Of a stretch of DNA of 64,000 nucleotides, positions 1,661 to 61,644 are shown piece after piece. The stretch spans positions 13,295 through 77,294 of the forward strand of contig CACZNC010000016.1 in assembly GCA_902782445.1 (NCBI GenBank), given 5' to 3'. The notes under the pieces are model-generated. The model worked only from the letters and a program-made list of their open reading frames with translations, ran no database searches and was not told the origin of the DNA. The stretch comes from an uncultured Ruminococcus sp. (GTDB lineage: Bacteria; Bacillota; Clostridia; Oscillospirales; CAG-272). The translations under genes and the position numbers were made by a program. How positions within the stretch are numbered: the stretch's first letter is position 1; every line of letters starts with the position of its first letter.

Positions 1661-2476
1661 AAGGCTTCGCCTTTCGAAATCCTCATGACGGGCTCGCCCG
1701 TCGGCGGAGGAAGTTTATCCCTTCACGAAGGGAAAAAGGTATGAAAGGCTACGCCTTTCGGATTTAATGTCCCTACGCGGGACAGGCGGCAGGGGAACCA
1801 TCTCAGGCCGAAGGTTCCCCTGCGGGGTCCTTGGCCGTGTGGCATAACCTGACAGCTCGTCCCGGAATCCGAATCTGACTGTGCATCACACGGTCCTCGC
1901 GCGGTCTCTGCTCATGCAGTTGAAACATGGAGCGTTTCAATCGCGCATTGGGCACATAACGCGCCGGCGGGAAGCTGAAAAATAAACAGCATCCTCGCGC
2001 ACGGCCAGAGATTCAAACCCGCGTGCAGACCGAACGATACGATCGAAAATCTGCTCGGGCGGAACATGGAGCTGGGGTGCGCTTTGCGAATGTTTCACGT
2101 GAAACAATCGGCAGGAAAACCGCACTTTGTCCCCTTTCAATGCGCGACTGAATCACCGGCGGAGCCCGCAGGATTTATCCTGCGCATGTTTCGGCCGCAC
2201 GTTGGCGATCAAGCCGGGTTGGTTCCATGTTCAGGCTCTTTCACCCTGCAATCGGCAGAAGCGCGCGGGGATCGGTCCGCGGTCCGGCTTCACTTTGCGC
2301 GTCCGACGCCGACTCCTTTTCCAACCAAAACCCCGCATAAATCCAAGGCCAAACGAAATCCCGATCCGGACAATCCCGCGCTGCACGAAATTCTGCCCAA
2401 ATCCTCATCTTTTCCCTTTGAAAAGTATAACCTCCGGGATCTTTATCGAACGCGGAGGCTATTCATACTTCTCTCA
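1661..2476. repeat. R01 mosaic element: G(+) - parS - F(+)
   Basis: Fills the whole rnpA-rpmH spacer. Modules recognised by alignment to other copies in the window. Boundaries approximate. Confidence 0.8.
2091..2106. promoter_or_regulatory. parS: parS-type 16-mer, perfect TGTTTCACGTGAAACA
   Basis: Exact read; hub of R01. Confidence 0.65.
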
Positions 2477-9015: not shown

Positions 9016-9572
9016 CATCCCTTCACGAAGGGAAATAAGGAATGAAACGCTCCGCGTTTCGGATTTAATGTCCCTACGCCGCGTCGACGCAGTCACGCAG
9101 ACGGGCAGCCGGGAGGGACCATCTCAGGCCGACGAGTGTTGCTTCGCAAACTCTGCCCCTCCCGAGGGTCCAATTTGCGGAGCAAATAGTTGGCCGTATG
9201 GCATAACCTTACCGCTCGTCCCGGAATCAAAATTCAATCTTGCATCCCACGTCCCCGCGCGGTCTCTGTTCGTGCAGCCGAAACATGCGCAGACAATGTC
9301 TGACGCACCGACGCAGTCGTGCTGGCCTCCGGCGGAGATTCAGGCGCGCATTGGGCACAGGACGCGCATCGCTGAATCGAAACCTGTTTCCGCATCCTCG
9401 CGCACATGCTCAGATTCAGACAGACATGCAGCCCGAACCGCGCGAACGAAAACCGTCCGGGCGAAACATGAAGTTTTGTCTGCGATTGTTCCACGTGAAA
9501 CAATTCTGAATTCATCATTCTGAATTCTGAATTTCATTCCTCATTCTACTAACCACTAGCCGCTAACTACTA
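9016..9572. repeat. R05 mosaic element: G(+) - parS - arm
   Basis: Separates the ECF sigma gene from the candidate anti-sigma ORF. Confidence 0.8.
9487..9502. promoter_or_regulatory. parS: parS-type 16-mer TGTTCCACGTGAAACA
   Basis: Exact read; R05. Confidence 0.65.
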
Positions 9573-9613: not shown

Positions 9614-10990
9614 ATGAACGATAACGAACACCTGCCCGATCTTCTGTCGGACGACGATCTCGCGCGGCTGGTCTCGCTGGTCCGGTCCGCCTATCCCGCT
9701 CCGCCGGACGGATTCGGCGAGGCCGTGATGAAGAAGATCCGGGACGAAAACCGGGCCCTGACCCAGCCCCAGCCGGACGCGAAGATCCTCCCCGCGGCGG
9801 ATTCCCGGAAAACGAAGAGATTCTTCGGCCCCATCCTCCGGTTCGGAGCCGCGGCAGCCTGCATCCTCTTCGTCGGAGCCGTCGCCGTGCGGATCCTTCC
9901 GACCTTCACCCGCGACCTCGCCGCCGACAAAGCCGCCCCCGCCGAAGCATCCGCCTCCGAAGCCGCCTTCGACATGGAGGCCGACGAAGCGGTCCCCGAA
10001 TCTTTTGCGGACGCCATGATCCCCGCGGAAGCCGCCGAAAATGCTGCCGGAAATATAGAATTCACGGCTAAGCCGACCGAAACCCTGGCTGATAGCCCGG
10101 CTGCCCCCGAAATGCCCGCCCCCGATCCGGGATACGACGGCAAACTCTCCGCACAGGACGCGCCCGAAGCCGTATTCGAAGCCGCCGCGGTCCCCGAAGC
10201 AGAGGCCGCGGAAGAATCCGAAACGCTCTACGGGTCATGGGAATACGCGGCGGAGGACGGAGCGTTCCCCGAAGAATCCCTCATGGCCGCGGGGCTTTCG
10301 GGATTCGGCGAAGAGGACGGCATGAGCCTCAGACTCTTCAACCTGAACGGACTCGAAGAAGAGGCGGGAGAGGCGAAGCGCATGACCTCCTCCGCGGAGA
10401 ACAGCGGCGCAAGTCTGGCCCCGGACAATGCCCCCTTCTACTACTACGTGCGGACGGAGTGCGCCCATTCTTCCGCCTTCCGCAACTCCTACCACGACAT
10501 CCCGGACGTCCTGATCGCGAAGGCCGGAGCGGACGAATTCGGCGCCTGGGCGTCGGAAGTCCAGAGGGAAGACCTCTGCGGCGTGAACATCCTGAGCTTC
10601 GCCCTGCGCTTCGGGCTGACGGCGGAGGAAATCCTCTCCACCGGCGACGTGTGGTACTACCTCGACCTGCCCGAAGATCTCGCCCTGACGGAGGAGAACG
10701 CCGCGGCCGTCGAAGCCTACTACCGGAACGGCGGAGACCCCGGCAAGATGGCTGAGCGGTATCTTGTCTACGAATGGAAGACCGCCGTGATCCGCGAAAT
10801 CGGCCTGGACTCCTATCTCGCCTGGCGCGGCCCCGAAACCGCCCTCCGCAGCTGGACCCTCGAAGAGGCCGCGGAACACTTCAACCTGTCCGACAGCACG
10901 ATGGAAAAGCTCTACCTCTCCGCCAAAGACGCGGTGATGAAGATCCTCCCCGACGCGGAAGTGCCGGAGAGAGGCGATGTAAAGGAGTGA
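9614..10990 (+). CDS. membrane protein, candidate anti-sigma factor (by position and topology only)
   Basis: 458-aa ORF with a cytoplasmic N-terminus, one TM (FFGPILRFGAAAACILFVGAVAV) and an acidic extracytoplasmic region. It lies downstream of the ECF sigma gene. No recognisable zinc-finger anti-sigma motif. Confidence 0.45.
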   Translation: MNDNEHLPDLLSDDDLARLVSLVRSAYPAPPDGFGEAVMKKIRDENRALTQPQPDAKILPAADSRKTKRFFGPILRFGAAAACILFVGAVAVRILPTFTRDLAADKAAPAEASASEAAFDMEADEAVPESFADAMIPAEAAENAAGNIEFTAKPTETLADSPAAPEMPAPDPGYDGKLSAQDAPEAVFEAAAVPEAEAAEESETLYGSWEYAAEDGAFPEESLMAAGLSGFGEEDGMSLRLFNLNGLEEEAGEAKRMTSSAENSGASLAPDNAPFYYYVRTECAHSSAFRNSYHDIPDVLIAKAGADEFGAWASEVQREDLCGVNILSFALRFGLTAEEILSTGDVWYYLDLPEDLALTEENAAAVEAYYRNGGDPGKMAERYLVYEWKTAVIREIGLDSYLAWRGPETALRSWTLEEAAEHFNLSDSTMEKLYLSAKDAVMKILPDAEVPERGDVKE

Positions 10991-13550: not shown

Positions 13551-14179
13551 AACGAGTTAGGAGTGGCTTGGTTAGTAGCTAGCGGCTAGTGGCTAGTAGC
13601 TAGTAGACCGCCCTCGTGAAATTAGGAATGAGGAATGAAATTCAGAATTCAGAATTATGAATTAAGAATTGTTTCACGTGAAACATTTGCCCGCCGAAAC
13701 TCCATGTTTCGCCCGGACGGTTTTCGATCGCGCGGTTCGGGCTGCATGTCGATCTGAATCTGAGTATGTGCGCGAGGACAAAGAAACAGTTTTTGCTTCC
13801 CGTCCGCGCGTCCTGTGCCCAATGCGCGCCTGAATCTCCGCCGGAGGCCAGCACGACTGCGTCGGTGCGTCAGACTTTGTCTGCGCACCACTCCAACTGC
13901 ACGAACAAAGACCGCGCGAGGACCGTGGGATGCAAGATCGAATTTCGAATACGGAACGAGCGGTAAGTTTATGCCATACGGCCAAGGACCCGCAGGGGGG
14001 ACTTCGGCCTGAGATGTTCCCCCTGCCGCCCGTCTGCGTGACTGCGTCGACGCGGCGTAGGGACATAAATCCGAAACGCGTAGCGTTTCATTCCTTATTT
14101 ACCTTCGATGAAGGTATGCTTTTCTCCGCCGACGGTCAAGAATGACCGTCGTTGCTGATTTCGTAAAGCGGAGCTTTGC
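13551..14179. repeat. R07 mosaic element: arm - parS - G(-)
   Basis: Between the tig stop and the clpP upstream region. Confidence 0.8.
13670..13685. promoter_or_regulatory. parS: parS-type 16-mer, perfect TGTTTCACGTGAAACA
   Basis: Exact read; R07. Confidence 0.65.
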
Positions 14180-20391: not shown

Positions 20392-20407
20392 TGTTTCACG
20401 TGAAACA
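20392..20407. promoter_or_regulatory. parS: parS-type 16-mer, perfect TGTTTCACGTGAAACA
   Basis: Exact read; R09. Confidence 0.65.
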
Positions 20408-20645
20408 ATCGTGATTTCGGACGGCTGACCTCCGTCGTTTCGCTTCTCTTTGTCATTCTGAGGAGCCTGCGACGAAGAATCTCCGCACATGGAGGATGGG
20501 TTGGCCTTAACGTTGGGAGATTCTTCGCTGACAGCACAACTGCGTTGGTGCGCACGACCGCGTTGGTGCGCATGACTGTGTCGGTGCGTCAGAATGACAA
20601 CGTGAGGGCGGAATGGGACGTGCGTCGGCCGAAATTCCGGAAAAA

Positions 20646-20661
20646 TGTTTCACGTGAAACA
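20646..20661. promoter_or_regulatory. parS: parS-type 16-mer, perfect TGTTTCACGTGAAACA
   Basis: Exact read; R09. Confidence 0.65.
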
Positions 20662-23695: not shown

Positions 23696-23711
23696 TGTTT
23701 CACGTGGAACA
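23696..23711. promoter_or_regulatory. parS: parS-type 16-mer TGTTTCACGTGGAACA (complement of the canonical site)
   Basis: Exact read; R11. Confidence 0.65.
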
Positions 23712-23944
23712 ATCGTGATTTCGTTCTGTTTTTCCTGAAACGATTCTTCATTCAGGCCGGAAACCCGTCCGTCGCCGCTTCTCTTTGTCATTCTGAGGAG
23801 CCTGCGACGAAGAATCTCCGCACGTGGAGGATGGGTTGGCCTTGAATCTGGGAGGTTCTTCGCTGACAGCACGACCGCGTCGGTGCGTCAGAATGACAAA
23901 GTGAGGGCGGAATGGGACGTGCAGCAGCCGAAATCCCGGAAAAA

Positions 23945-23960
23945 AGTTTCACGTGAAACA
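23945..23960. promoter_or_regulatory. parS: parS-like variant AGTTTCACGTGAAACA (1 mismatch)
   Basis: Exact read; R11. Confidence 0.5.
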
Positions 23961-24036: not shown

Positions 24037-24684
24037 CTACTCCACTTTCTCTTCTCTCGGCTTATGGAACACCCGCATCGCGGCTTTGGCGGCCAGGTGG
24101 GGGAGGAAGGCGAAGACCGAGGTGGAGAGGAATTCCGGCAGGGCGATCTTCGCAAGAGCAGGGCCGAGAGAAAAATCCCGGACCGTCAGTTTCAGGGTCA
24201 CGAGGGTGAAGGCCATCCGCAGAAGACATCCCGCGGCGGTGAACAGAAGCCGCACGGCGAAGGAATCCCGGAAGAACTCCTTTGTCAGCAGTCCCGCGAA
24301 GATCCCGGCGGGCAGATAGAGCAGGGGGAGCAGGGAGACGGCCGCCCCTCCGAGGGATTCGATGACGAAGGCCGCGATCACGCCGAAGACCGCGCCGAAG
24401 CGTTCCCCCTCGGTCATGCCCACGGCGATCACCAGGGGGAGCATGAGATCCGGGACCACGCCGAAGGGCCGGAACCGCGCGAAGATCGTGGTCTGGAGCA
24501 GCGCGAAGAAAACGAGGAGTCCCGCCGCGGCCAGAACGCGCAGAAGGACCTCGGTATCGACGCCGGGGATGCGGAACCGCCCGCCGGGTCTTTTGCCGCG
24601 GTGCAGGTCGATCTTCCGTTCGGTGATCCCGGTGTCGGAATTGAGCAGATCGGCGTCGGATTTTTTTCCGGATCCGAGAAACAT
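24037..24684 (-). CDS. mreD: rod shape-determining protein MreD (by position and membrane topology)
   Basis: 215-aa multi-TM ORF (…VVPDLMLPLVIAVGMTEGERFGAVFGVIAAFVIE…) downstream of mreB and mreC. The N-terminus is longer than usual. Confidence 0.7.
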   Translation of the reverse strand: MFLGSGKKSDADLLNSDTGITERKIDLHRGKRPGGRFRIPGVDTEVLLRVLAAAGLLVFFALLQTTIFARFRPFGVVPDLMLPLVIAVGMTEGERFGAVFGVIAAFVIESLGGAAVSLLPLLYLPAGIFAGLLTKEFFRDSFAVRLLFTAAGCLLRMAFTLVTLKLTVRDFSLGPALAKIALPEFLSTSVFAFLPHLAAKAAMRVFHKPREEKVE

Positions 24685-27405: not shown

Positions 27406-28060
27406 ACGTATGGATCCCGCTTCACGGGAAATAGGAATGAAACGCTGCGCGTTTCAGATTTTATGTCCCTGCGCCGCGTCGACGCAGTCACGCAGACGGG
27501 CAGCCGGGAGGGAACATCTCATGGCCGACGAGTGTTGCTTCGCAAACTCTGCCCCTCCCGAGGGTCCAATTTGCGGAGCAAATAGTTGGCCGTATGGCAT
27601 AAACTTACCGCTCGTCCCGTCAGTTGAAATCTGACAGTGCGTCCCACGGTCCTCGCGCGGTCTGTGTTCGTGCAGCCGAAACATGCGCAGACAATGTCTG
27701 ACGCACCGACGCAGTCGTGCTGGCCTTACGGCGGAGATTCAGGCGCGCATTACACGGGACGCGCGGACGGGAAGTAGAAAATAAAACTTCATTTTCGCGC
27801 ACGGTTTGAGATTCAGACAGACATGCAGACAGAGCCGCGCGATCGAAAAGCATTCGGGTGAAACATGGGGTTTGGGCAAAGCGGCCGGCTGTTTTGATCG
27901 AAAAAGTCAGCCGTGAAGGAGGAAAACCGTGATTTTCCCCTTTCACCGATCACTTTTTCAGGGATCAGCGGGAATTTCGTCCGTTTCACGTGAAACAATT
28001 CTGAATTCATCATTCTGAATTCTGAATTCACTCGTCCCATTCCTTATTCCTCATTCCTCT
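27406..28060. repeat. R14 mosaic element: G(+) - parS variant - arm
   Basis: Between mreB and maf. The arm encodes the maf C-terminus. Confidence 0.8.
27982..27997. promoter_or_regulatory. parS: parS-like variant CGTTTCACGTGAAACA (1 mismatch)
   Basis: Exact read; R14. Confidence 0.5.
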
Positions 28061-35692: not shown

Positions 35693-35832
35693 AGAAAATT
35701 CAGAATGCAGAATGAAGAACGCAGAATTGTTTCACGTGAAACAAGGAATCATTCCCAATTCCTCCTTCACTCCTAACTCCTCACTCCTGCCTCGTCCTCT
35801 ACTAGCTACTAGCTTCTATCCACTGGCAACTA
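35693..35832. repeat. R18 minimal element: arm - parS - arm
   Basis: Between the tRNA-Ser promoter and the lipoprotein stop. Confidence 0.75.
35728..35743. promoter_or_regulatory. parS: parS-type 16-mer, perfect TGTTTCACGTGAAACA
   Basis: Exact read; R18. Confidence 0.65.
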
Positions 35833-36465
35833 ATACGTCGGCGAGTCTATCCTCCACCCGTCCTCCGTCTCCACGAGCCAGATCTCCACGTCCACGGAGG
35901 GCTCGCCGTTCACGAAGGAGGAGAGGCGGACTTCCACGCCGGTGCTGTTCTCGCGCAGTACCGTGAGGGTGGAGGTGTCGTAGGTCCGGCCGAGGGGGAT
36001 CGAGTCCCGGCCCACGTCCACCCGCTTGGTGAGGAAGCCGTCCTGTTCGAGGTACATCGCGTAAAGGGCGGTGGTGCGGTGCTCCGTCTCCGTCCCCTCG
36101 TCGAAGACGTCGGAGATCCCGGTAAACGCCCGGTCGAAGAGGGTCTCGGCGTAGGTCTCGGTGAAGACTTCCAGAGTCGCCCTCCGGATGTCGTCCACCG
36201 TTTCGTAGCCGCAGGCCGGATCCACGGGGGTGTAGCTGATCGCCGCGATGTCCGTGTCGAAGGTCTCGTAGAACGCGCGGACGGCATTTTCGTCCCGGTT
36301 CGTCGGAAGCCCGTCCCCGAAGTAGATCTCGTTGATCTCCGCCGCCCGGGGAAGCAGATCGTCCAGCACCGGCTTTAGTTCCTCCGCCGTGTGTTTCGGC
36401 CCGGAGCAGCCGGTGAGAAGGAGGAGAAGGACGAGGAGGACGAGGAAGAAGATTCGTTTTTTCAT
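35830..36465 (-). CDS. putative lipoprotein, function unknown
   Basis: Signal peptide plus lipobox MKKRIFFLVLLVLLLLLTGC. 211 aa. Confidence 0.7.
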   Translation of the reverse strand: MKKRIFFLVLLVLLLLLTGCSGPKHTAEELKPVLDDLLPRAAEINEIYFGDGLPTNRDENAVRAFYETFDTDIAAISYTPVDPACGYETVDDIRRATLEVFTETYAETLFDRAFTGISDVFDEGTETEHRTTALYAMYLEQDGFLTKRVDVGRDSIPLGRTYDTSTLTVLRENSTGVEVRLSSFVNGEPSVDVEIWLVETEDGWRIDSPTY

Positions 36466-37465: not shown

Positions 37466-40084
37466 TCACTCCTCCGTTTCCCCGTCCTCTCCCTCGATAT
37501 CGCCGGCAAACTCTTCCCCGCCGCCTTCGGGATCGTCGGGAACGGGATCTTCGGGAATATAATCGTCGGAAACAGGCTCTTCGGGATTCTCCGTTTCTTC
37601 CGCGCTGTCCGCCAGGGCGAAATTGACGATCTTCGCGCCCTCGCCCAGCCGCATCATGATCACGCCGGCGGTGTTCCGTCCGCGCATGGGGATGCCCTTC
37701 GCCGGGGTGCGGATGATGGTGCCCTCGTTCGTGATCATGAGCAGGTCTTCGGATTCGCGGACCGTCGCCAGGGCGCAGAGATCCCCGGTCTTCTCGCTCA
37801 GACGGTGGATGATGTTGCCCTGGATGCCGCGGCCCTTCGCCTCGAACTCCCCGGTCAGCATCCGCTTGCCGAATCCGCCCTCGGTGACGGTGACGATCCG
37901 GTTTTCCGCCTCCCATTCCGGGTCGTTTTCCAGAACGCAGGCGCCGGCCACCTCGTCCCCTTCCCGGAGGGAGATCGCCTTGACGCCCCGGCCCGTCCGC
38001 CCGATCACCGTGACGAGTTTTTCATGGAACCGCGCCGCGAGCCCCTTCTTCGTCGCCACGAGGATGTCGCTCTCCCCGTGGGTCAGGGCCACGTAGATGA
38101 GGGAATCCCCCTCGTCCAGACTCAAGGCGATCTTGCCGCCCTTGCGCTGGATGCGGAAATCGGAAAGCCTCGTGCGCTTGACGACGCCCCGGCGGGTGAC
38201 CATCGCGAGGTAGTTCCGCTCTTCGCTCTCGTTTTCGGGGACCGCTTCCAGATCCGGCACCGAGAGCATCGCCGTGATCTTCTCGTCCCGGCCGACCTCG
38301 ATGAGGTTCACGATGTGGGAGCCCTTCGCGGTCCTTCCGGCCTCCGGAACCCGGTACGCCTTGATCGCGTAGACCCGGCCCTCGGTGGTGAACAGCATGA
38401 GCCAGGAGTGGGAATCCGCCACGGCGACCCGCTCGATGTAGTCCTCTTCCTTCGTCGCCATGCCGATGACGCCCCGCCCGCCGCGCTTCTGGGCCGCGTA
38501 GACGTCGGAGGGCTGCCGCTTGATATAGCCCTCGTGGGTGAGGGTGATGACCGCGCTGTGCCGCTCGATCAGGTCCTCGAGGACGATCTCGTTCTCCGCC
38601 TCCTCGATGGTGGTCCGGCGGGGATCCGCGTATTTTTCCTTGATCTCGGTGAGCTCCTGCCGCACGATGTCCTTGATCTTCTCCTCGTCCCCGAGGATGG
38701 CCCGGAACTCGCCGATGGCCCTGTACAGTTCCGCCAGACGGGACTCCACCTTCTGCCTTTCGAGACCGGAGAGACGCCCGAGGGTCATCTGCACGATGGC
38801 CTGGGTCTGCTCGTCCGACAAAGAGAACCGTTCCTTCAGCCGTTCCCGCGCCGCCGGGGTGTCCGGGGAGGAGCGGATGATGGAGATCACCTCGTCGATG
38901 TTGTCGATGGCGATCTTGTAGCCCTCGTTGATGTGGGCCTCGTGGAGTGCCTTTTCCAGATCGAACTTGACCCGGTTGATGATCACCTGCTCCTGATGGT
39001 TGATGTACACCCGCAGGGCCTGGCGGAGATTCAGAATCTTCGGCTCGTTGTTCACCAGCGCCAGCATGATGACGGAGCAGGTGGATTCGAGCTCGGTGTA
39101 CTTATAGAACTGATTCAGGATGATCTGCCCGTTCGCGGATTTTTTGTACTCCACGACGATGCGCATCCCCTTCTGGTCGCTCTCGTCCCGGATCTCGGTG
39201 ACGCCCTCGATGCGCTTTTCGTTGACGTGGGCGGCCATGTTCTTGAGAAGCTCGGATTTCTGGACCATGTAGGGGATCTCGGTGATGATGATCCGGCATT
39301 CCTCCTCCTCGACCTCCGCCTTCGCCCGCACTGTGATCCGTCCGCGCCCGGTGGAGTAGGCCTCGTAGATCCCGGCCGTCCCGTGGATCCCGGCACCCGT
39401 CGGGAAATCGGGTCCCTTGATGAACTGCATGAGCTCCCGCGCCCCGGCGTCCGGATGGTCCATCAGATAGATCGTGCCGTCGATCACCTCGCCGAGGTTG
39501 TGGGGCGGGATGTTCGTCGCCATGCCGACCGCGATGCCCACCGCGCCGTTGACGAGCAGATTCGGGAACCGGCTCGGCAGGACCGTGGGCTCCCGGCGGG
39601 TGTTGTCAAAGTTCATGTCCCACGGCACGGTCTCCTTGTCGATGTCGCGCAGCATTTCGTTGGCGATCCGGGAGAGACGCGCTTCGGTGTACCGGTAGGC
39701 CGCGGGGGTGTCGCCGTCGATGTTGCCGAAATTGCCGTGTCCGTCCACGAGGGGCGCGCGGTAGGAAAAGTCCTGGGCCATGCGGACCATCGTATAGTAG
39801 ACGGAGGTGTCTCCGTGGGGATGGTAGCGGCCGAGCACGTTGCCGACGGTGGTCGCGGACTTGCGGAAGGGCTTGTCGTAGGTGAGGTTGTCCTCCCACA
39901 TCGCGTAGAGCACGCGCCTCTGACCGGGCTTCATGCCGTCCCGGGCATCCGGCAGCGCGCGGGAGACGATGACCGACATGGAGTATTCGATGAAGGACTT
40001 CCTGATCGACTGCTCCATGTTCACCGGCACGATCTTCTGATCCGGGAATTCAATGTTCTGTTCTTCTCTGGGATGCTTCGCCAT
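37466..40084 (-). CDS. gyrA: DNA gyrase subunit A
   Basis: 872 aa. ...[19 protein letters not shown]...[22 protein letters not shown]..., beta-pinwheel CTD and an acidic C-terminal tail. Confidence 0.97.
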
Positions 40085-40681
40085 GATCTTAGTTTAATCT
40101 CCTTCTGCTTAACGAGACGAAAGCCTCCGCCTTTCAAAACCAGCCATGACGGGCATTCCGGTGACTGCGTCGACCGATCCGTCGGCGGAGGAGGGTTTGT
40201 CCATCCCTTCACGAAGGGAAATAAGGTATGAAACGCTACGCGTTTCGGATTTAATGTCCCTGCGCGGGACGGGCGCCGGGAGGGACCATCTCAGGCCGAA
40301 GGCCCCTCCCGAGGGTCCCTTGGCCGTATGGCATAACTGTACAGCTCGTTCCGGAATCGAAATTCGACTGTATATCCCACGGTCCTCGCGCGGTCTTTGT
40401 TCGTACAGCTTAACCCGTGCACGGAACAAGTTCCGTGGGCTTCGCCGGCGTTTCAGGCGCGCATTGGGCACAGGGACGCGCGATTTTGAAGCTGAAACTG
40501 TTTCTCAGTCCTCGCGCACGGTTTTAGATTCAGAGGGACGTGCAGCCCGAACCGCGCGAACAAAAATCTGTTTGGGTGGAACATGGAGTTTTGGCGGCGA
40601 ATGTTTCACGTGAAACATCAGTCAATTCCTAACTCCTAACTCGTCCTCTGCTAGCCGCTAGCCGCTTCCAACTAGCAACTA
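40085..40681. repeat. R20 mosaic element: G(+) - parS - arm
   Basis: Between the gyrA start and the PfkB kinase stop. Confidence 0.8.
40602..40617. promoter_or_regulatory. parS: parS-type 16-mer, perfect TGTTTCACGTGAAACA
   Basis: Exact read; R20. Confidence 0.65.
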
Positions 40682-41566
40682 ATTTCCCGCCACGTATTCT
40701 CCCGCAATGCTCATCGCGTATTCGACGGCTTCTTCGAAGATCGGTGCTTCGCGGACGGCGCTTGCGTAGAGATACGCGCCGAGGAAGGTGTCGCCCGCGC
40801 CTTTGAGACGGACCACCGGGCGTTTCACGGTCTCCATGAAGAAGGTCTGCCCGTCGTCCTTGACGAGGCATCCGTCCCCGGCGAGGGTCGTGATCACCGT
40901 CGGGACCCCGAGGCTTTCGATTGCCCGGAAGAGGGATCCTTTGTCCGTGCCGCAGCCGCAGAGGGCCGCCAGTTCCTCCCGGTTCGGCTTGATGAGGTCG
41001 GGCTTCACGGGGGCGTTCACAGCGATCTTTAAGGCCTCCCCGTCGCAGTCGAGGGCGACCGACGCGCCTTTTTCCTTGATTTTCGCGACAAGCTCCGCGG
41101 GATAGGACTTCGGCACGTCGGAGGGGCAGCTTCCGGCGATCACGACCCAGTCCCCCGGTCCGATCTGCGCCAGGACCCCCGTTTCGATCTCCGGGAGCTT
41201 GTCCCCCACGGGCGTTCCCGGCGCGTTGATTTCGGTGGTGCCGCCGTCCTCCGCGATCAGGGACACGTTGACCCGGGTGGAGCCTTCGATTTCGACAAAA
41301 TGATAGGTCCAGATCCCCTCGTCCTCGAGGATCTTCCGGAAGGTCTCCCCGGTCGCGCCCCCCACGGGAGCCACGGGCCGGAGCTTGAAGGGGAACCGGT
41401 CCCCGTCCCGCTTCGCGCAGTTCAAAATCGCCCGGGTCACATTGATCCCCTTCCCCCCCGCCGAAACGGTATGGGAAGCAGCCCGGTTCAGCGACCCCGG
41501 AACGAGGGAGGAAACCCGGTATTCGACGTCCAGAGCCGGGGAAAGGGTTAAGGTTACGATCAGCAT
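40679..41566 (-). CDS. PfkB-family sugar kinase (1-phosphofructokinase / tagatose-6-phosphate kinase-like)
   Basis: MLIVTLTLSPALDVEYRV... and a C-terminal GAGDTFLGAYLYA motif. Confidence 0.8.
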   Translation of the reverse strand: MLIVTLTLSPALDVEYRVSSLVPGSLNRAASHTVSAGGKGINVTRAILNCAKRDGDRFPFKLRPVAPVGGATGETFRKILEDEGIWTYHFVEIEGSTRVNVSLIAEDGGTTEINAPGTPVGDKLPEIETGVLAQIGPGDWVVIAGSCPSDVPKSYPAELVAKIKEKGASVALDCDGEALKIAVNAPVKPDLIKPNREELAALCGCGTDKGSLFRAIESLGVPTVITTLAGDGCLVKDDGQTFFMETVKRPVVRLKGAGDTFLGAYLYASAVREAPIFEEAVEYAMSIAGEYVAGN

Positions 41567-42362
41567 AAGAACCTCCGTGTAGAGTTGGAAATACGAAACC
41601 GGGATTTCGTTTCGGCCTGGGATTTTCGTTTTTCGGATGGGAACGCTTCGCTGGGATTCGGGTGACGCGCGACCTTAAAGCCGAAACAGAGAGCAATCCC
41701 CGCGCGCTTGAACCGATTGCGGATTTGACAAGTCGAACATGGCGTCAACCCCGCGCGGTCTGTGTTCGGACAGCTGAAACATGCGCAGGATAAATCCTGC
41801 GGCCTTGCGGCGGTGATTCTGTCGCGCATATAAAGGGGACAATGTACAGTCTTTCTTGCCGATTGTTTCACGTGAAACATTAGAACGCCCAAACTCCATG
41901 TTTAGGCTAAACAGATTTTCGATCGCGCCGTTCTGCCTGCACGTCTGTCTGAATCTGAGCATATGCGCGAGGAAGAAGAAACTATTTCAGCTTCCCGTCC
42001 GCGCGTCCTGTGCCCAATGCGCGCCTGAATCTCCGCCGGAGGCCGCAGACTTGTCTGCGCATGTTTCAACTGCACGAACAGAGACCGCGCGAGGACGTGG
42101 GATGCAGAATCGAATTTCGATTCCGGGACGAGCTGTAAGTTTATGCCATACGGCCAAGGGACCCTCGGGAGGGGCCTTCGGCCTGAGATGGTCCCTCCCG
42201 GCGCCCGTCCCGCGCAGGGACATAAATTCTGAAAGGCGTAGCCTTTCATTCCTTAAATACCTTCCGTGAAGGTATGAACATCCTCCTCCGCCGACGGACA
42301 GGAATGTCCGTCGTTGCTGATTCAGAAAGGCGGAGTCTTTCGTCCCGGGTTTGGGTGGCGGG
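41567..42362. repeat. R21 mosaic element: F(-) - parS - G(-)
   Basis: One hub with one F arm and one G arm. Between the kinase start and the gyrB stop. Confidence 0.8.
41864..41879. promoter_or_regulatory. parS: parS-type 16-mer, perfect TGTTTCACGTGAAACA
   Basis: Exact read; R21. Confidence 0.65.
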
Positions 42363-44639
<2,277 letters not shown>

Positions 44640-44683: not shown

Positions 44684-44699
44684 TGTTTCACGTAAAACA
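44684..44699. promoter_or_regulatory. parS: parS-like variant TGTTTCACGTAAAACA (1 mismatch)
   Basis: Exact read; R22. Confidence 0.45.
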
Positions 44700-44931
44700 T
44701 TCGTGATTTCGGTCTGTTTTTCCTGAAACGATTCTTCATTCAGGCCGAAACCCGTCCGTCGCCGCTTTTCTTTGTCATTCTGAGGAGCCTGCGACGAAGA
44801 ATCTCCGCACGCGGAGGATGGGTTGGCCTTGAAGCTGGGAGATTCTTCGCTGACAGCACAACTGCGTTGGTGCGTCAGAATGACAAGCTGGAGGCGGAAC
44901 GGGACGTGCATCGGCCGATATTTCGGAGGAA

Positions 44932-44947
44932 AGTTTCACGTGAAACA
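44932..44947. promoter_or_regulatory. parS: parS-like variant AGTTTCACGTGAAACA (1 mismatch)
   Basis: Exact read; R22. Confidence 0.5.
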
Positions 44948-45020
44948 ATTCTTCATTCATCATTCTGAATTCTGAATTTCACTCCTAACTCGTTGTCTAC
45001 TAGCCACTAACCACTTTCCG

Positions 45021-45257
45021 CTAACGACTAATTCTCCCTACGACCGCCGCGGTGGAGATATGCGTGAAGATCACCCCGTCGTCGGTGAGGATGAAGGTCC
45101 GGGGAAGGTCGTCCCCCGCGCTGGATGTGACGCCGCGCTTTTCCGCGGACTTGAGAAAATCCCGGTTCACGCGGGAATCCGTGTGGCCGTCCATGTCGAA
45201 GCATCCGAGGATCGAGGAAGCCCGGACAAGACGCCCCGCGCCGATGTGCAAGTACAT
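45021..45257 (-). CDS. remB: DUF370 / RemB (YaaB)-like small protein
   Basis: MYLHIGAGRLVRASSILGCFDMD... Located between dnaN and gyrB, as yaaB/remB is in Bacillus. The last codons (RISR*) are encoded by a repeat arm. Confidence 0.7.
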   Translation of the reverse strand: MYLHIGAGRLVRASSILGCFDMDGHTDSRVNRDFLKSAEKRGVTSSAGDDLPRTFILTDDGVIFTHISTAAVVGRISR

Positions 45258-46764: not shown

Positions 46765-47151
46765 GTATGTTCTCCTTGGTTATGGTTCGTTGTCATGGGA
46801 GATTGAGAATGTATCTGAATTTCTCTCCCGGGGTTTTGGGGTGTGCGGGATTTGCGGTTTATATGATGGGAGCGCTTCGGTCCGGTTCGGGATGACGTGC
46901 GGTGCGGAATTATCGTTTTTTTATATGGGAGCGCTTCGCTGGGATGGAAGGGGTCGCGCGGACTTGAAGCCATAAAATGGAGCGATCCTCGCGGGATTCT
47001 TCAAATTCAAGCCGGACGAGCCTGATAGGGGAGGCAACCCCGCGCGGTCTCTGTTTTTGAAGCTGAAACATGCTCGGAGCAAGCTCCTCGGCCTTGCGGC
47101 GGTGATTCAGTCGCGCATGGAAGAGGGACAATGTATAGGCGGTCGGGATGA

Positions 47152-47167
47152 TGTTTCACGTGAAACA
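47152..47167. promoter_or_regulatory. parS: parS-type 16-mer, perfect TGTTTCACGTGAAACA
   Basis: Exact read; R24, dnaN side of oriC. Confidence 0.65.
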
Positions 47168-47381
47168 ATCGTGATTTCGTTCTGTTTTTCCTGAAACGAT
47201 TCTTTATTTTGGACGGCTGTCCCCCATCGTTCCGCTTCTCGTTGTCATTCTGAGGAGCCTGCGACGAAGAATCTCCGCACGTGAAGGATGGGTTGGCCTT
47301 GAAGCTGGGAGATTCTTCGCTGACAGCACAACTGCGTTGGAATGGGACGTGCAGCGTCCGATCTGACGGGAACGGCCCGCA

Positions 47382-47397
47382 TGTTTCACGTGAAACA
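47382..47397. promoter_or_regulatory. parS: parS-type 16-mer, perfect TGTTTCACGTGAAACA
   Basis: Exact read; R24. Confidence 0.65.
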
Positions 47398-48086
47398 TCC
47401 AGTCTTTCTCTTCACGTTGTCCCCTTTCCATGCGCGCCTGAATCTCTGCCGTAGGCCGCCGCATTGGCATATCGTTGTGCTATTCTTTTCGTGCATCCAG
47501 CCAATGCTGCAGACCGCGCGAGGTCAGCTTCATGTTCCGGCTCGTTCGGTCTGAATCGGAAACGACGCGCGGGGATTGCTCTGCGGCCCGGCTGAAAGTA
47601 CGCGCGTCCTGCGCCCAATCCTTTTCCGACTCATAAACCGAAAAATCCAAGTCGAATCGAAATCCCGCCCCGGACCTGACCCTCTGCTCCTCATTTTCTC
47701 CCTTCCGCGCGCAAGAGAATAGAAGAGAACAGATAAGATTAGATAAGAACAGCAGCAGGAGCAGTAGGCCCTGTGGGTCTTTGGGAAAACTCCGGGGGCT
47801 TTGCCGCCTGGCAGTTGACGGCAATTTCCGGTTCTCTCTGATAATTTTTCCTACATCAATTATAGCCGGACAGTCCGGCGTTCATGCGCGATTGTCTCCC
47901 GCCTGCCGGTTTTTTCCAGTTCCTGTGCCTTCCGGGGTGGGGAAATCCCTCCGGCTTTTTGGGAAAACCGCGGGGATCGGAGGCGTTTTCCTCTCCCGGA
48001 CCGACCCTTTCGGCGTCGAAATTCCGGTTTTCCGGGGCCCCGGGAGCGTCCGTTTTTCCACTCCCCGCCTGCGGAAACCTCCGGGC

Positions 48087-48095
48087 TGTGGAAAG
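48087..48095 (-). promoter_or_regulatory. DnaA box (TGTGGAAAG)
   Basis: Complement is CTTTCCACA, 7/9 to TTATCCACA. Confidence 0.5.
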
Positions 48096-48237
48096 AGGCG
48101 GTTCCCTTTTGCCGGGATTTTTCCGTGGACACCCTGCCCTTCCGGGTTTCTCCCCCCGGGACGTCGGACGCGCGGTCCTGCGGAGCTCCGATCAGTCCGG
48201 ATCCGGTTTTCGGATTTCCCGCCGGGTTTTCCGGGGG

Positions 48238-48246
48238 TTTTCCACA
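48238..48246 (+). promoter_or_regulatory. DnaA box (TTTTCCACA)
   Basis: 8/9 to TTATCCACA. Confidence 0.65.
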
Positions 48247-48353
48247 GGATTCGGGGCGGTTTTTCCGGGGGCGGGGAGGAAATCCGGGTTTTCGGCGTGC
48301 CGAGGGAGCCGTTTTCCGTTGGTTTTGCGTCAAGCGGGGGTGGAAAGCTCTGG

Positions 48354-48362
48354 TTTTCCACA
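48354..48362 (+). promoter_or_regulatory. DnaA box (TTTTCCACA)
   Basis: 8/9 match. Forms an inverted pair with the box at 48379, 16 bp away. Confidence 0.65.
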
Positions 48363-48378
48363 GAAGTTTTCCCCTGAT

Positions 48379-48387
48379 TGTGGAAAA
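48379..48387 (-). promoter_or_regulatory. DnaA box (TGTGGAAAA)
   Basis: Complement of TTTTCCACA, 8/9. Confidence 0.65.
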
Positions 48388-48442
48388 GTCCGAGGTGTTT
48401 TTTGCCCCGTTTTTCCGTCCGGATTTCGGCTTTGGGCACCGG

Positions 48443-48451
48443 TGTGGAAAA
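48443..48451 (-). promoter_or_regulatory. DnaA box (TGTGGAAAA)
   Basis: Complement of TTTTCCACA, 8/9. Confidence 0.65.
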
Positions 48452-48836
48452 ATATGGGGAAGTCAGCCGGTTTCCGCGGGGGAATGAGGTGACGGTTTTA
48501 TGTTATGGTTGTAATGGCTGATTCGGGATATTGTCTCGGTGCGGGATTATCGGGTTTTTGTATGGGATCGCTTCGCTGGAATGGAAGGGACGCGCGTTAC
48601 TGTATCGAAAACCTGTTTTTTCTCCTCGCGCGCTTTGACAGATTCTGACATGACGAGCCTGAGAATGGAGCCAACCTCGCGCGGTCTTCGCACGTGCAGC
48701 CGAAACATGCGCAGACAAGTCTGCGGCCTTGCGGCGGTGATTCAGGCGCGCATTCGGCGTTGGACGCGTGTTCGTGCGGCGGGATCTGTTTGTTCATCCT
48801 CGCGCGGATCAAGAAAGACAATGGTTTTCTTGGCTT

Positions 48837-48852
48837 TGTTTCACGTGAAACA
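48837..48852. promoter_or_regulatory. parS: parS-type 16-mer, perfect TGTTTCACGTGAAACA
   Basis: Exact read; R25, dnaA side of oriC. Confidence 0.65.
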
Positions 48853-49112
48853 ATCGCGGTTTCGGACGGCTGACCCTCATCGTTCCGCTTCTCGTTGTCA
48901 TTCTGAGGAGCCTGCGACGAAGAATCTCCGCACGTGTAGGATGGGTTGGCCTTGAAGTTGGGAGATTCTTCGCTGACAGCACAACTGCGTTGGTGCGCAC
49001 GACTGCGTCGGTGCGTCAGAATGACAAAGTGAGGACGAAACGGGACGTGCGGCGGCCTGTCTGACGGAGAAAAGCAGGATCGTTTCACAGAAACACCGGC
49101 AGAAAAAGGAAT

Positions 49113-49128
49113 TGTTTCACGTGAAACA
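49113..49128. promoter_or_regulatory. parS: parS-type 16-mer, perfect TGTTTCACGTGAAACA
   Basis: Exact read; R25. A decayed remnant CGTTTCACAGAAACA starts at 49081. Confidence 0.65.
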
Positions 49129-49431
49129 TCACCCCAACCGCCCAGACTCTGTCCCCTTTCCATGCGCGCCTGAATCACCGCCGTGAGGCCACGGGACTTG
49201 TCCCGTGCATGTTTCAGTTGCACGAACACAGACCGCGCGGGGAGAACGCCATGTTCCGCCCGTCATGTCTGAATCGGCGGAAGTGCGCGGGGACCGCATC
49301 CTGTTCCGGCTTCCCGTCCGCGCGTCCTGTGCCCACTCCTTTTCCCTCAAATAAAACCGCCATCTTTCCGCCGCGCTCAACCCCGATGCGGAACCACCTC
49401 CGCGCTCGGCCCATACAGAGAATACAAACCT

Positions 49432-51904: not shown

Positions 51905-53401
51905 TTACGGCAGATTCTTATAACTCTCGATGGCCTTGTCGAGCTTCTTGACCAGGAGCTTTTCGTTTTTCGCCCACCAGCTGGCGAAGGCGCCTTCGTT
52001 GGAGGAACCGAACACGGCGTTGGTGTACACGGATCCGGTGCCGAGGGCCTTGTCCGCCATCATGATGAACGGGCTGTTGATGTGGTTGTAGATGATGTCG
52101 ACCATCTGGCTGTCGATGTTCGCGTCGGCGTACTTGATCTTCAGGGCGGTCTCGTACCAGGCGGGGACGACCCGGCGGTAGGACTCCGCGCAGAGGGCTT
52201 CGACGGAGGCGGTGGAGGCGGAGATCCGCTCGGGGTTGGCGGCCACGGGGATCCCCACTCCGCATCCGTTGGCGGTGGCGGCTCCGCAGAGGTAGTCGAG
52301 CCCTTCTTCGAGCTTCGGGTAGGGCAGGATGCCGTATTCGAAGGACACGTCGCGGAGCGTCATGGCGGTGTCGAACATGCCGGGGTAGAAGAGGGAGGTG
52401 CCGGCCCGGAAGGTGTCCGCCTTGGAGCCCAGCATGGAGATATTGTCGGTGTAGAGGAGCTTGTAGAGGGTCTCGCCCCAGCGGATGCCGTTCTCGTTGT
52501 AGATGTCGAGGATCGGGAAGCCTTCCTCGTCCCGGAGAACGTAGGTCAGGCCGGTGGACATGGACATGTAGTTCGGGATGCCCCACTGCTCGAAGCGGAA
52601 GCCCATGATGTCCGCGTCGTCCGCCGATCCGTTGCCGTTGACGTCGGTGTAGACCCCGCGGCAGTAGTCGGCGAATTTGTCGTAGGTCCAGGTCCCGTCG
52701 AGGACCGCGTCGTAGAGCTGGTTCGGGTCGCCGAAGTAGTCAATGAACAGGGGCTTGTTGTAGTACATGGCGGAGGCGCCGAAGAAGACGGTCAGGCAGA
52801 TATCGCCGTTGAGGAAATACCGCTTGGTGTTGTCAAACTGGCTCTCGGCCATCATGTCCCGGTACCACCAGGGCTGTTCCAGATTCACGTTGTCGAGGGT
52901 GAGCCAGTCGTAGTAGTAGCCCTGGATGGACTGGGAGAAGAGCTGGGAGGACTCCTCCATGATGAGGTCGTAGTCATCGGTCCCGGCCTGCAGGAACTGG
53001 GAGACCTCGCCGGGGAATCCGCCCCAGTCGGCCGATCCGGCGATGAAATTGAACTTGACGTTCAGCCGGTCCTCCACGGTGATGTTCCGGTTGTAGACGG
53101 CGTCGAGGACCACGTCGCCGTTGAGCTCGCCGAGGGCGTCGTACTTCTGGCAGTTTTCGAGGCCGAAGGTGAGGATGTTGAGGGTCGTTCCGGCGAAATC
53201 CAGGTCGGGGGAGAGGGTGTCGGGGTAGTTGGCCCGGGTGATCTCGGTCTCCTCGGGCTCGTCGGCCGTCGGATTATCGGAGGAATTCGTCCCCGCGGGA
53301 TTTGCGGGATCGTTCTGCGTGCCCGTCTCGCTGCATCCGGCGAGGGAGAAGCAGGAAGCGGTCAGCAGAAGCGCGAGGAATGCGGTGATGAGGCGTTTCA
53401 T
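51905..53401 (-). CDS. extracellular solute-binding lipoprotein (ABC transporter substrate-binding protein), orphan
   Basis: Lipobox MKRLITAFLALLLTASCFSLAGC. 498-aa family-1 SBP-like sequence. No permease or ATPase genes adjacent. Confidence 0.8.
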   Translation of the reverse strand: MKRLITAFLALLLTASCFSLAGCSETGTQNDPANPAGTNSSDNPTADEPEETEITRANYPDTLSPDLDFAGTTLNILTFGLENCQKYDALGELNGDVVLDAVYNRNITVEDRLNVKFNFIAGSADWGGFPGEVSQFLQAGTDDYDLIMEESSQLFSQSIQGYYYDWLTLDNVNLEQPWWYRDMMAESQFDNTKRYFLNGDICLTVFFGASAMYYNKPLFIDYFGDPNQLYDAVLDGTWTYDKFADYCRGVYTDVNGNGSADDADIMGFRFEQWGIPNYMSMSTGLTYVLRDEEGFPILDIYNENGIRWGETLYKLLYTDNISMLGSKADTFRAGTSLFYPGMFDTAMTLRDVSFEYGILPYPKLEEGLDYLCGAATANGCGVGIPVAANPERISASTASVEALCAESYRRVVPAWYETALKIKYADANIDSQMVDIIYNHINSPFIMMADKALGTGSVYTNAVFGSSNEGAFASWWAKNEKLLVKKLDKAIESYKNLP

Positions 53402-57440: not shown

Positions 57441-57456
57441 TGTTTCACGTGAAACA
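57441..57456. promoter_or_regulatory. parS: parS-type 16-mer, perfect TGTTTCACGTGAAACA
   Basis: Exact read; R28. Confidence 0.65.
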
Positions 57457-57661
57457 ATCGTGGTTTCGTTCTGCTTTTCCTGAAACGATTCTTCATTCAG
57501 GCCGGAAACCCGTCCGTCGCCGCTTTACTGTGTCATTCTGAGGAGCCTGCGACGAAGAATCTCCGCACGTGGAGGCCTTGAAGCTGGGAGATTCTTCGCT
57601 CCGCTCAGAATGACAACGTGGAGGCGGAATGGAACGTGCATCTGCCGAAATTTCAGATGCA

Positions 57662-57677
57662 TGTTTCACGTGAAACA
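57662..57677. promoter_or_regulatory. parS: parS-type 16-mer, perfect TGTTTCACGTGAAACA
   Basis: Exact read; R28. Confidence 0.65.
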
Positions 57678-58861: not shown

Positions 58862-58879
58862 GACGGAATTCCTCCGATT

Positions 58880-59384
58880 TTAGTTGTTAGTTGGAAGTGG
58901 CTAGTGGCTAGTAGAGCGAAGAGGGAAGAGGGAATTCAGAATTCAGAATGAAGAATTGTTTCACGTGAAACATCCGCCGCCAAAACTCTATGTTTCGCCC
59001 GGACAGATTTTCGATCCCGCGGTTCAGCCTGCACGCGGATCTGAATCTGAATATGTGCGCGAGGACGGAGAAACAGTTTCAGCTTTCCATCCGCGCGTCC
59101 CATGTAATGCGCGCCTGAATCTCCGCCGTAAGGCCGCAGGACTTGTCCTGCGCATGTTTCGGCTGCACGAGCAGAGACCGCGCGAGGACGTGGGATGCAC
59201 AGTCGATTTTCGATTCAGGGACGAGCTGTAAGTTTATGCCATACGGCCAAGGGACCCGCACAGGGGGCCTTCGGCCTGAGATGGTCCCCCGTGCCGCCGT
59301 CCCGCGCAGGGACATAAATATACCGGTCGACGCAGTCACCGGGACCGTCGTTGCTGATTTCGAAAGGCGGAGTCTTTCGTTCGC
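58880..59384. repeat. R29 mosaic element: arm - parS - G(-)
   Basis: Between the hydrolase start and the oxidoreductase stop. Confidence 0.8.
58957..58972. promoter_or_regulatory. parS: parS-type 16-mer, perfect TGTTTCACGTGAAACA
   Basis: Exact read; R29. Confidence 0.65.
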
Positions 59385-61392: not shown

Positions 61393-61408
61393 TGTTTCAC
61401 GTGAAACA
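61393..61408. promoter_or_regulatory. parS: parS-type 16-mer, perfect TGTTTCACGTGAAACA
   Basis: Exact read; R31. Confidence 0.65.
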
Positions 61409-61628
61409 TTTTTCCGAAATTCCAGCCGCCGCACGTCCCGTTTCGCTTCCAGCTTGTCATTCTGACGCACCGACACAGTCGTGCGCACCAACGCAGTTGT
61501 GCTGTCAGCGAAGAATCTCCCAACATCAAGGCCAACCCATCCTCCGCGTGCGGAGATTCTTCGTCGCAGGCTCCTCAGAATGACAAAGAGAAGCGAAACG
61601 ATGGGGGTCAGCCGTCCGAAATCACGAT

Positions 61629-61644
61629 TGTTTCACGTGAAACA
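61629..61644. promoter_or_regulatory. parS: parS-type 16-mer, perfect TGTTTCACGTGAAACA
   Basis: Exact read; R31. Confidence 0.65.

Follow-up and report, generated by a model that had tools for sequence, protein, structure and literature searches.

An old, covarying multi-hairpin element repeated between the genes of uncultured rumen Oscillospiraceae-like bacteria

REP and BIME sequences of Enterobacteria and Pseudomonas are extragenic, high-copy, hairpin-forming repeats that lie at gene ends in both orientations, build mosaics with other motifs, and are old and conserved, not the product of a recent burst. They act as stabilisers of RNA at gene ends, as terminators or as protein-binding sites. 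Other modular intergenic repeats with predicted stable folds have been described as BOX, RUP and SPRITE in Streptococcus pneumoniae (PMC3049150), and intergenic R-repeat families are known from Pseudomonas fluorescens (PMC2718517). Here we describe a hairpin unit of ~175-250 bases that lies between ordinary genes in a 64,000-nt stretch of chromosome from an uncultured Ruminococcus sp. (GCA_902782445.1, contig CACZNC010000016.1, positions 13,295 to 77,294; hereafter the window), taking the copy between pfkB and gyrA as the focal one (Table 1). The multi-hairpin element is new. It is conserved, its hairpins covary, and its intergenic copies are numerous, old and intact, with homogenisation in patches. 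Its host clade is that of uncultured rumen Oscillospiraceae-like bacteria, it belongs to no family testable here, and it is far more elaborate than the known interspersed structured repeats that it resembles in position and behaviour. Our preferred reading, to which we give a probability of about 45%, is that of an old, maintained, high-copy family of interspersed intergenic repeats that would serve at gene boundaries as REP/BIME or BOX elements do and whose folded strand would be read by a factor acting in trans.

The unit shares with REP/BIME the traits of placement, copy number, hairpins, mosaics and age listed above, but a REP consists of just one imperfect palindrome of 20-40 nt, whereas the unit measures 170-250 nt within a core of 300-400 nt, folds into at least eight helices and combines expansion hairpins with about 54 positions that hardly vary. 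BOX, RUP, SPRITE and the R-repeats are likewise intergenic and modular; they are transcribed together with adjacent genes and number tens to hundreds of copies, as may be true of the unit; however, they are shorter, their copies are much more alike, and none has an invariant single-stranded block of 17 nt or helices that covary across genera.

Copies were located with a covariance model, R1 (179 positions, 31 pairs), trained on 31 related sequences. R1 covers six to seven helices with matches of 106-248 nt, and the conserved core extends about 100 nt further. In the window it recovers seven full-length copies (E 1e-36 to 1e-62) and no further credible match, and the unpaired 17-mer TTGGCCGTATGGCATAA, searched with up to three mismatches as an anchor, occurs seven times against a chance expectation of 0.03. 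Both searches thus arrive at exactly the seven copies, at the same places and on the same strands, that had been listed in the preliminary description, made from the letters alone. The three compensatory hairpin variants quoted there are all present in the sequence, namely TCCCTTCACGAAGGGA versus TACCTTCA(T)CGAAGGTA, GAAACGC-TAC-GCGTTTC versus GAAAGGC-TAC-GCCTTTC, and CGGGAGGGACC..GGCCCCTCCCG versus CAGGGGAACC..GGTTCCCCTG. A subtype with extra hairpins was also rightly recognised, there being three such hairpins each in the 9036 and 27431 copies and one in the 13910 copy. The 59176 copy departs from the shared order of hairpins described there and lacks the usual P0 and P1.

The extent of the element had to be redrawn. 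Across species the conserved core of ~300-400 nt runs from P0 through the CGCGC...GCGCG hairpin, so that the unit as first delimited, ending at 40360, corresponds to about the first half to two thirds of it; conservation reaches ~40482 between species and, within the genome, the parS palindrome at 40602-40617. In the window the unit forms the 5′ domain of a composite of ~560 nt, followed by a second conserved domain, an extension, the palindrome TGTTTCACGTGAAACA and arrays of a 7-bp repeat. The "module G" to which the unit had been assigned is a composite, and elsewhere the unit occurs without the part that carries parS and heptamers.

Covariation was assessed on an R1-guided alignment of 98 distinct copies and strongly supports the hairpin structure. 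Standard pairs fill 89.6% of the cells compared with 80.3% in shuffles (0 of 500 shuffles reach the observed value), 24 of the 32 pairs change on both sides, and cells with a double change number 260, compared with 10-33 in controls that shift the partners by one to three columns. P6 (CACGGAAC-AA-GTTCCGTG), in the 3′ domain, covaries in six of seven pairs and P7 (GGC-TTC-GCC) in two of three. The long P3a/P3 stem contains a conserved 1x1 mismatch and encloses the loop 40288-40300, which had been taken for an invariant loop of 13 nt; one pair inside it, U40289-A40299, in fact covaries (U-A 65, A-U 7, G-C 6, U-G 13), leaving the 9-mer CUCAGGCCG unpaired as the true loop. A hand-set structure was used in place of RNAalifold, which misaligned P3 when given plain MAFFT alignments. 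A column-pair scan of the 5′-domain alignment yielded no extra long-range helix, the loop pair (columns 148-158) being the only addition. A pseudoknot between loop GGCCGA and anchor UUGGCC found no support, as both strings are invariant and their rare variants (L059, L134 and L136) are uncompensated.

Many positions also keep their sequence. In 54 of 172 consensus columns, almost the entire 17-mer among them, conservation over 100 copies is 97% or higher, and the near-invariant short unpaired motifs comprise the CUCAGGCCG loop, TTGGCCGTATGGCATAA, CAGCTCG, ATCCCA and TCCTCGCGCGG. Other parts are fixed in place and free in sequence. The P0 region (38 nt upstream plus 4 nt into the start of the model) folds at -5 kcal/mol or below in 93% of 89 copies, with many different sequences among the P0-type hairpins, and extra hairpins of unrelated sequence enter at the same four or five points across lineages.

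The unit is not restricted to one genome. A scan of one genome per species found it in three rumen metagenome-assembled genomes (MAGs), RUG10688, RUG12348 and SIG615, labelled Ruminococcus sp. and Oscillospiraceae at NCBI; additional scans gave 59 further loci in metagenomes and none in viral contigs, and blastn against phages and plasmids found no match. Over 557 kb of related DNA from rumen metagenomes and MAGs, R1 detects 100 copies, with up to three units per 8 kb in RUG10688 and SIG615 loci, and the unit is conserved across at least four species-level lineages. The preliminary description had allowed that homologues might survive only as decaying fragments; 96 of the 100 matches are full length, and no decayed fragment was seen in the window or in the 557 kb. 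The pairs that change on both sides likewise answer its reservation that covariation might be lacking. A mixed copy exists in RUG10688 contig 371 (L034, ~1300-1700), whose 5′ domain is of the RUG type, whereas its 3′ domain hardly differs from the one in window copy 5; this copy is a recombinant between lineages or else lies on a mis-binned contig.

The earlier suggestion that no known RNA family matches the unit has held up. The recommended scan against Rfam 15 finds only two tRNAs in the whole window at the gathering score, and in 40000-42400, which holds two copies, nothing relevant on either strand at E values up to 10. A search of the literature on the motif strings and related descriptions returned nothing on the unit, only the 16-bp palindrome being recognised as parS. 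Moreover, stem changes are compensatory and no open frame is kept among copies; every frame is interrupted by the optional inserts, which measure 20, 18 and ~30 nt, and the unit is thus not coding. A small open reading frame (ORF), either MKRYAFRI or a minus-strand frame of 27 codons, was rejected on this ground. Two further resemblances were judged coincidental, one of GCCGUAUGG to domain 5 of group II introns, in which the 3′ strand is absent and Rfam gives no match, and the other of GCATAA to an Xer/dif half-site, for which there is no second arm.

Covariation of this kind invites comparison with the ornate RNAs ROOL, GOLLD, OLE and raiA (10.1101/2024.12.08.627333), which, like the unit, come from the rumen and Clostridia, have many helices and expansion hairpins that vary, and keep certain unpaired nucleotides invariant; the palindromic GGCC found in both loop and anchor could, by inference only, mediate loop-loop contacts. 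The copies might accordingly be a multi-copy gene family for a structured noncoding RNA of a new ornate class, acting in trans from its own promoter, an explanation that we regard as possible though doubtful. It would account for the covariation, the expansion hairpins at fixed sites, the invariant unpaired nucleotides, the covarying pair within the loop, the conservation over at least four lineages and the retention in synteny at tig-clpP. The plus-strand 5′ end adjoins a gene and leaves no room for a promoter, so the RNA would probably be read from the minus strand, on which segments A-C fold slightly better. However, ROOL, GOLLD, OLE and raiA are single- or few-copy genes with a clear strand bias, whereas the unit is implied to occur in tens to hundreds of copies per genome, unlike known RNA genes, shows no strand bias, has a low RNA signal and finds no match in Rfam. 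It also stands in both orientations inside the presumed operons tig-clpP, maf-mreB and gyrB-gyrA, and no sigma-70-like promoter is predicted in 39900-42500.

The whole core folds at -137.4 and -137.1 kcal/mol on the two strands; by segment, A-C are better on the minus strand and D on the plus strand, and z-scores against shuffles are modest (0 to -2.6). Wobble pairs show no strand asymmetry, the modelled helices holding 162 G.U against 130 A.C, the latter being G.U on the other strand. Relative to flanking single-copy genes, the depth of the unit is 30-80x in DNA runs, in which contigs break at repeats, and 0.5-8x in RNA runs, and it is not enriched among RNA-derived contigs, which puts the RNA signal per copy at a few percent of that of gyrA mRNA. 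These RNA depths are assembler contig depths that carry no strand information and thus argue only against an abundant stable RNA. Two possibilities had originally been offered for the unit, a repeat-borne structured RNA and a structure recognised by an enzyme that processes DNA; its structure proves to be covarying and intact, while wobble pairs, energy and orientation favour neither form.

Within a genome the copies are 0.69-0.83 identical and between genomes 0.72-0.76, and this equal divergence indicates that the family is old and has not undergone a recent burst. In three orthologous stretches from near strains, 94-96% identical at third codon positions, every unit is in place and no whole element has been gained or lost. 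Some orthologous units are nevertheless far more diverged than the genes around them: copy 5 and its strain orthologue are 84.6% identical with 57 gap columns, although their flanks are nearly identical. Such differences fall into contiguous patches in which a whole hairpin is exchanged for another allele of the family, sometimes together with optional hairpins, pointing to gene conversion among copies. Over longer distances, the arrangement tig-[unit]-clpP recurs in SIG615, whose clpP and clpX are only 84% identical to those of the window, and SIG615 has a unit downstream of clpX where the window has none. Copies thus keep their locus in near strains and, at least once, across genera.

This history bears on whether the unit is a non-autonomous mobile element, like a miniature inverted-repeat transposable element (MITE) or a PATE, folding as single-stranded DNA and recognised by a transposase encoded once elsewhere (HUH/RAYT, IS200/IS605 or other). 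The high copy number, strictly intergenic placement in both orientations, mosaics with other repeat modules, pairing of equal quality on both strands as in DNA hairpins, and the turnover of sites between genera seen downstream of clpX would all suit such an element. We consider it unlikely nonetheless, since copies are no closer within a genome than between genomes, none is decayed, orthologous gaps show no gain or loss, no transposase is found with Pfam among 30 of the 37 predicted window ORFs or by clustering of 229 flanking ORFs, and the orientation bias that single-strand transposition gives is missing. Terminal inverted repeats and target-site duplications gave no signal with the 3′ boundary set approximately (mean longest inverted match 5.35 against 5.20 in shuffles; median longest direct flank match 5 against ~5.5). 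Of the hallmarks of a MITE, then, we found neither the terminal repeats and duplications, nor near-identical copies of a recent burst, nor insertion polymorphism between strains in the three stretches.

The genes beside the unit were compared by clustering 229 flanking ORFs and with Pfam on 30 of the 37 predicted ORFs of the window; the DNA covered was the window and loci of 2-15 kb. All seven window copies, which have housekeeping genes as neighbours, and 85 analysed copies in related loci are intergenic. Flanking genes are oriented relative to the unit as (-,-) in 22 cases, (+,+) in 20, (+,-) in 14 and (-,+) in five; in the window four copies follow a stop codon in the sense direction and three adjoin an opposite-strand gene at its start. 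A co-oriented upstream stop codon lies at a median of 152 nt before the anchor, which means that P0 begins ~0-30 nt past the stop, and where genes converge, a pair of units may stand tail to tail, with each unit in the sense orientation to its own gene. No flanking protein recurs except members of large paralogous families (oxidoreductases, lipoproteins). The association with TnpB/IscB-like, HUH or reverse-transcriptase proteins that the preliminary description had proposed to look for did not emerge in these loci, where no protein of these kinds is a recurrent neighbour.

A scaffold for a guide RNA (omega-RNA, bridge RNA or similar) of a transposon nuclease or recombinase, with the flank at the P0 end as guide, would explain the sharp boundary against variable flanking DNA and the multi-copy structure with invariant motifs. 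PATEs of IS200/IS605 and the omega-RNAs HEARO and IS605-orfB resemble the unit in just these respects, being multi-copy, structured, without ORFs and sharply bounded. However, clustering of flanking ORFs and Pfam on window genes show no TnpB, IscB or IS110-like ORF beside any of 85 units, no TnpA is seen alongside, and the unit copies are old, divergent and free of orientation bias; the RNA signal is low, and Rfam, in which HEARO and the IS605-orfB families are presumably represented, gives no match for 40000-42400 at E up to 10. We therefore hold this explanation to be very improbable.

The palindrome TGTTTCACGTGAAACA is, by its match to the literature, a canonical ParB-binding parS site, and every G composite in the window ends in one. 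As the window covers the dnaA-dnaN-gyrB-gyrA region, the unit might be tied to ParB/parS as a DNA-level element of chromosome organisation, its hairpin head bounding or assisting a ParB loading site. This seems highly unlikely to us. In 94 kb of RUG10688, RUG12348 and SIG615 there are many units and no parS-like site, which already weakens the idea, and compensatory stem changes are not expected of double-stranded protein-binding sites. The units of these genomes show instead that the unit is an entity of its own, and that the fusion with parS and heptamers is specific to the lineage of the window.

We return to the gene-boundary repeat as the preferred reading. Its working form would be a folded single strand, either a transcript that reads through from adjacent genes, whichever their orientation, or DNA that is briefly unwound; as the stems are almost purely Watson-Crick, folding is possible from either strand. 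Stems would supply the shape, and the invariant unpaired motifs might be where a dedicated protein, encoded at another place in the genome and acting in trans, makes contact. The effect on the cell would most likely be like that of REP/BIME, BOX and ERIC, the marking or insulating of gene ends, with protection of RNA 3′ ends, termination, or a topological or protein-binding site as candidate routes. Abundant production of free RNA and current transposition are less likely.

Several points weigh against this reading. The complexity is far above that of REP, BOX, ERIC or Correia elements, and the eight or more helices, the ~54 positions that barely change and the placing of expansion hairpins at fixed sites form a pattern typical of folded functional RNAs. 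Intact retention could stem from gene conversion instead of selection on each copy. The RNA comparison relies on contig depth, a poor measure, and no partner protein was identified within the window or the 2-15-kb loci. Only P1 with GATTTAATGT, in copies 5 and 6, is called terminator-like, at a regional count of 3 against 2.9 by chance and thus no better than the chance level, and the T tract is weaker in RUG-type copies.

A bolder form of the same idea, which we put forward tentatively and think unlikely as it stands, is that the unit represents a new class of large folded nucleic-acid module set at hundreds of gene boundaries and served by a dedicated protein, a genome-wide punctuation system. 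In the lineage of the window this module would have been fused with amplified parS and 7-bp arrays in a genome that is ~68% coding. If each copy is functional, the unit ranks among the most elaborate structured elements found interspersed in any bacterial genome so far, and ~54 near-invariant positions kept across genera, together with intact copies at tens to hundreds of gene boundaries, make it a clean case for studying repeat function and the reader protein. If it is merely selfish, it shows that gene conversion can preserve a complex hairpin architecture without transposition. In either case R1 is ready for surveying rumen genomes, and the joined unit, parS and heptamer modules flag a lineage whose intergenic DNA is organised unlike that of textbook bacteria.

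Table 1. Positions of the unit, its parts in the focal copy, and associated repeats (window coordinates).
Feature	Position	Strand	Remarks
Copy 1	1735..1906	+	R1 176 bits; adjoins rnpA start (Pfam)
Copy 2	9036..9264	+	R1 140 bits; three extra hairpins; 3′ of ECF sigma factor gene
Copy 3	13910..14097	-	R1 164 bits; between tig and clpP; one extra hairpin
Copy 4	27431..27662	+	R1 120 bits; three extra hairpins; maf/mreB gap, antisense to both
Copy 5 (focal)	40222..40395	+	R1 197 bits; pfkB/gyrA gap, antisense to both
Copy 6	42083..42255	-	R1 203 bits; after gyrB, sense to gyrB
Copy 7	59176..59349	-	R1 162 bits; after GFO/IDH/MocA oxidoreductase gene; P0/P1 replaced
17-mer anchor sites	1831, 9190, 27586, 40320	+	
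17-mer anchor sites	13985, 42157, 59250	-	
Optional 5′ extension hairpin (CCTCCGCC...GGCGGAGG)	40124..40191	+	In 5 of 7 window copies
P0 TCCCTTC-AC-GAAGGGA	40204..40219	+	Fixed place, variable sequence
P1 GAAACGC-TAC-GCGTTTC	40230..40246	+	99.7% paired; double-sided change in 6 of 7 pairs
P2 GTCCC-TGCGC-GGGAC	40256..40270	+	95.4% paired; 4 of 5 pairs covary; optional hairpin inserted in some copies
P3a + P3 (GGGC..CGGGAGGGACC / GGCCCCTCCCG..GTCC)	40271..40318	+	84-89% paired; 11 of 14 pairs covary
Invariant unpaired 17-mer TTGGCCGTATGGCATAA	40320..40336	+	In 7 of 7 window copies; nearly all positions at least 97% conserved (n = 100 copies)
P5 TCGA-AAT-TCGA	40357..40367	+	80.4% paired; 2 of 5 pairs covary; weaker support
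Conserved junction TCCTCGC|GCGG	40383..40393	+	End of R1; optional hairpin insertion site in other genomes
3′ domain of cross-species core	40394..40482	+	P6, P7, CGCGC...GCGCG hairpin
Lineage-specific tail	40483..40678	+	Extension, parS TGTTTCACGTGAAACA (40602-40617), 7-bp arrays up to pfkB stop codon
parS, examples	20393-20406, 40602-40617, 41865-41878, 61394-61407		
parS-240-parS family, examples	20393-20660, 23697-23959, 44685-44946, 57442-57676, 61394-61643		
7-bp arrays, examples	13565-13660, 40619-40678, 44947-45033, 58873-58957		Often reach gene start or stop

The window is ordinary chromosome near the replication origin, with dnaA, dnaN, gyrB, gyrA, rnpA, yidD, tig, clpP, clpX, mreB, mreC and maf among its genes and a coding fraction of only ~68%. 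Behind nearly every gene lies a gap of 400-1000 bp made up wholly of repeat modules, even inside the expected operons. The parS palindrome occurs ~55 times in the 64 kb, one or two per intergenic gap, and 123 times in 399 kb of related metagenome loci, and its amplification may reach beyond the origin region; in a bacterial chromosome parS sites usually number from a handful to a few dozen. On the outer side of each parS lie drifting tandem arrays of 7 bp, such as (GAATTCA)n, (GAGGAAT)n, (GAGTTAG)n and (GGCTAGT)n. A second repeat family, parS-~240 nt-parS, which has no relation to the G unit, is present in 8-10 copies that are up to 97% alike.

The start of the G 3′ domain (CCTCGCGCGGTCT.TGTTCGTGCAG..GAAACATGCGCAG) also occurs without the 5′ domain, at 41749-41792, 47038-47081 and 48675-48718, where it is joined to another head module (repeat families D13, D16 and D17), indicating that modules recombine. 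The gyrB-pfkB gap (41567-42362) is a large imperfect palindrome centred on a single parS (41865-41878), with a G head towards gyrB and a different head towards pfkB.

The gap of 2.7 kb between dnaN and dnaA (46765-49431), presumably the oriC region, holds repeat modules, four parS and no convincing gene. The genes on both sides of it are almost all encoded by the minus strand; the minimum of the cumulative GC skew lies near 18 kb, at a distance from dnaA. Pfam gives no match for four predicted proteins of 211-498 aa, at E up to 1e-3 for 9614-10990 and 1e-5 for 24037-24684, 35830-36465 and 51905-53401; the first of them follows an ECF sigma factor gene and may be its anti-sigma factor.

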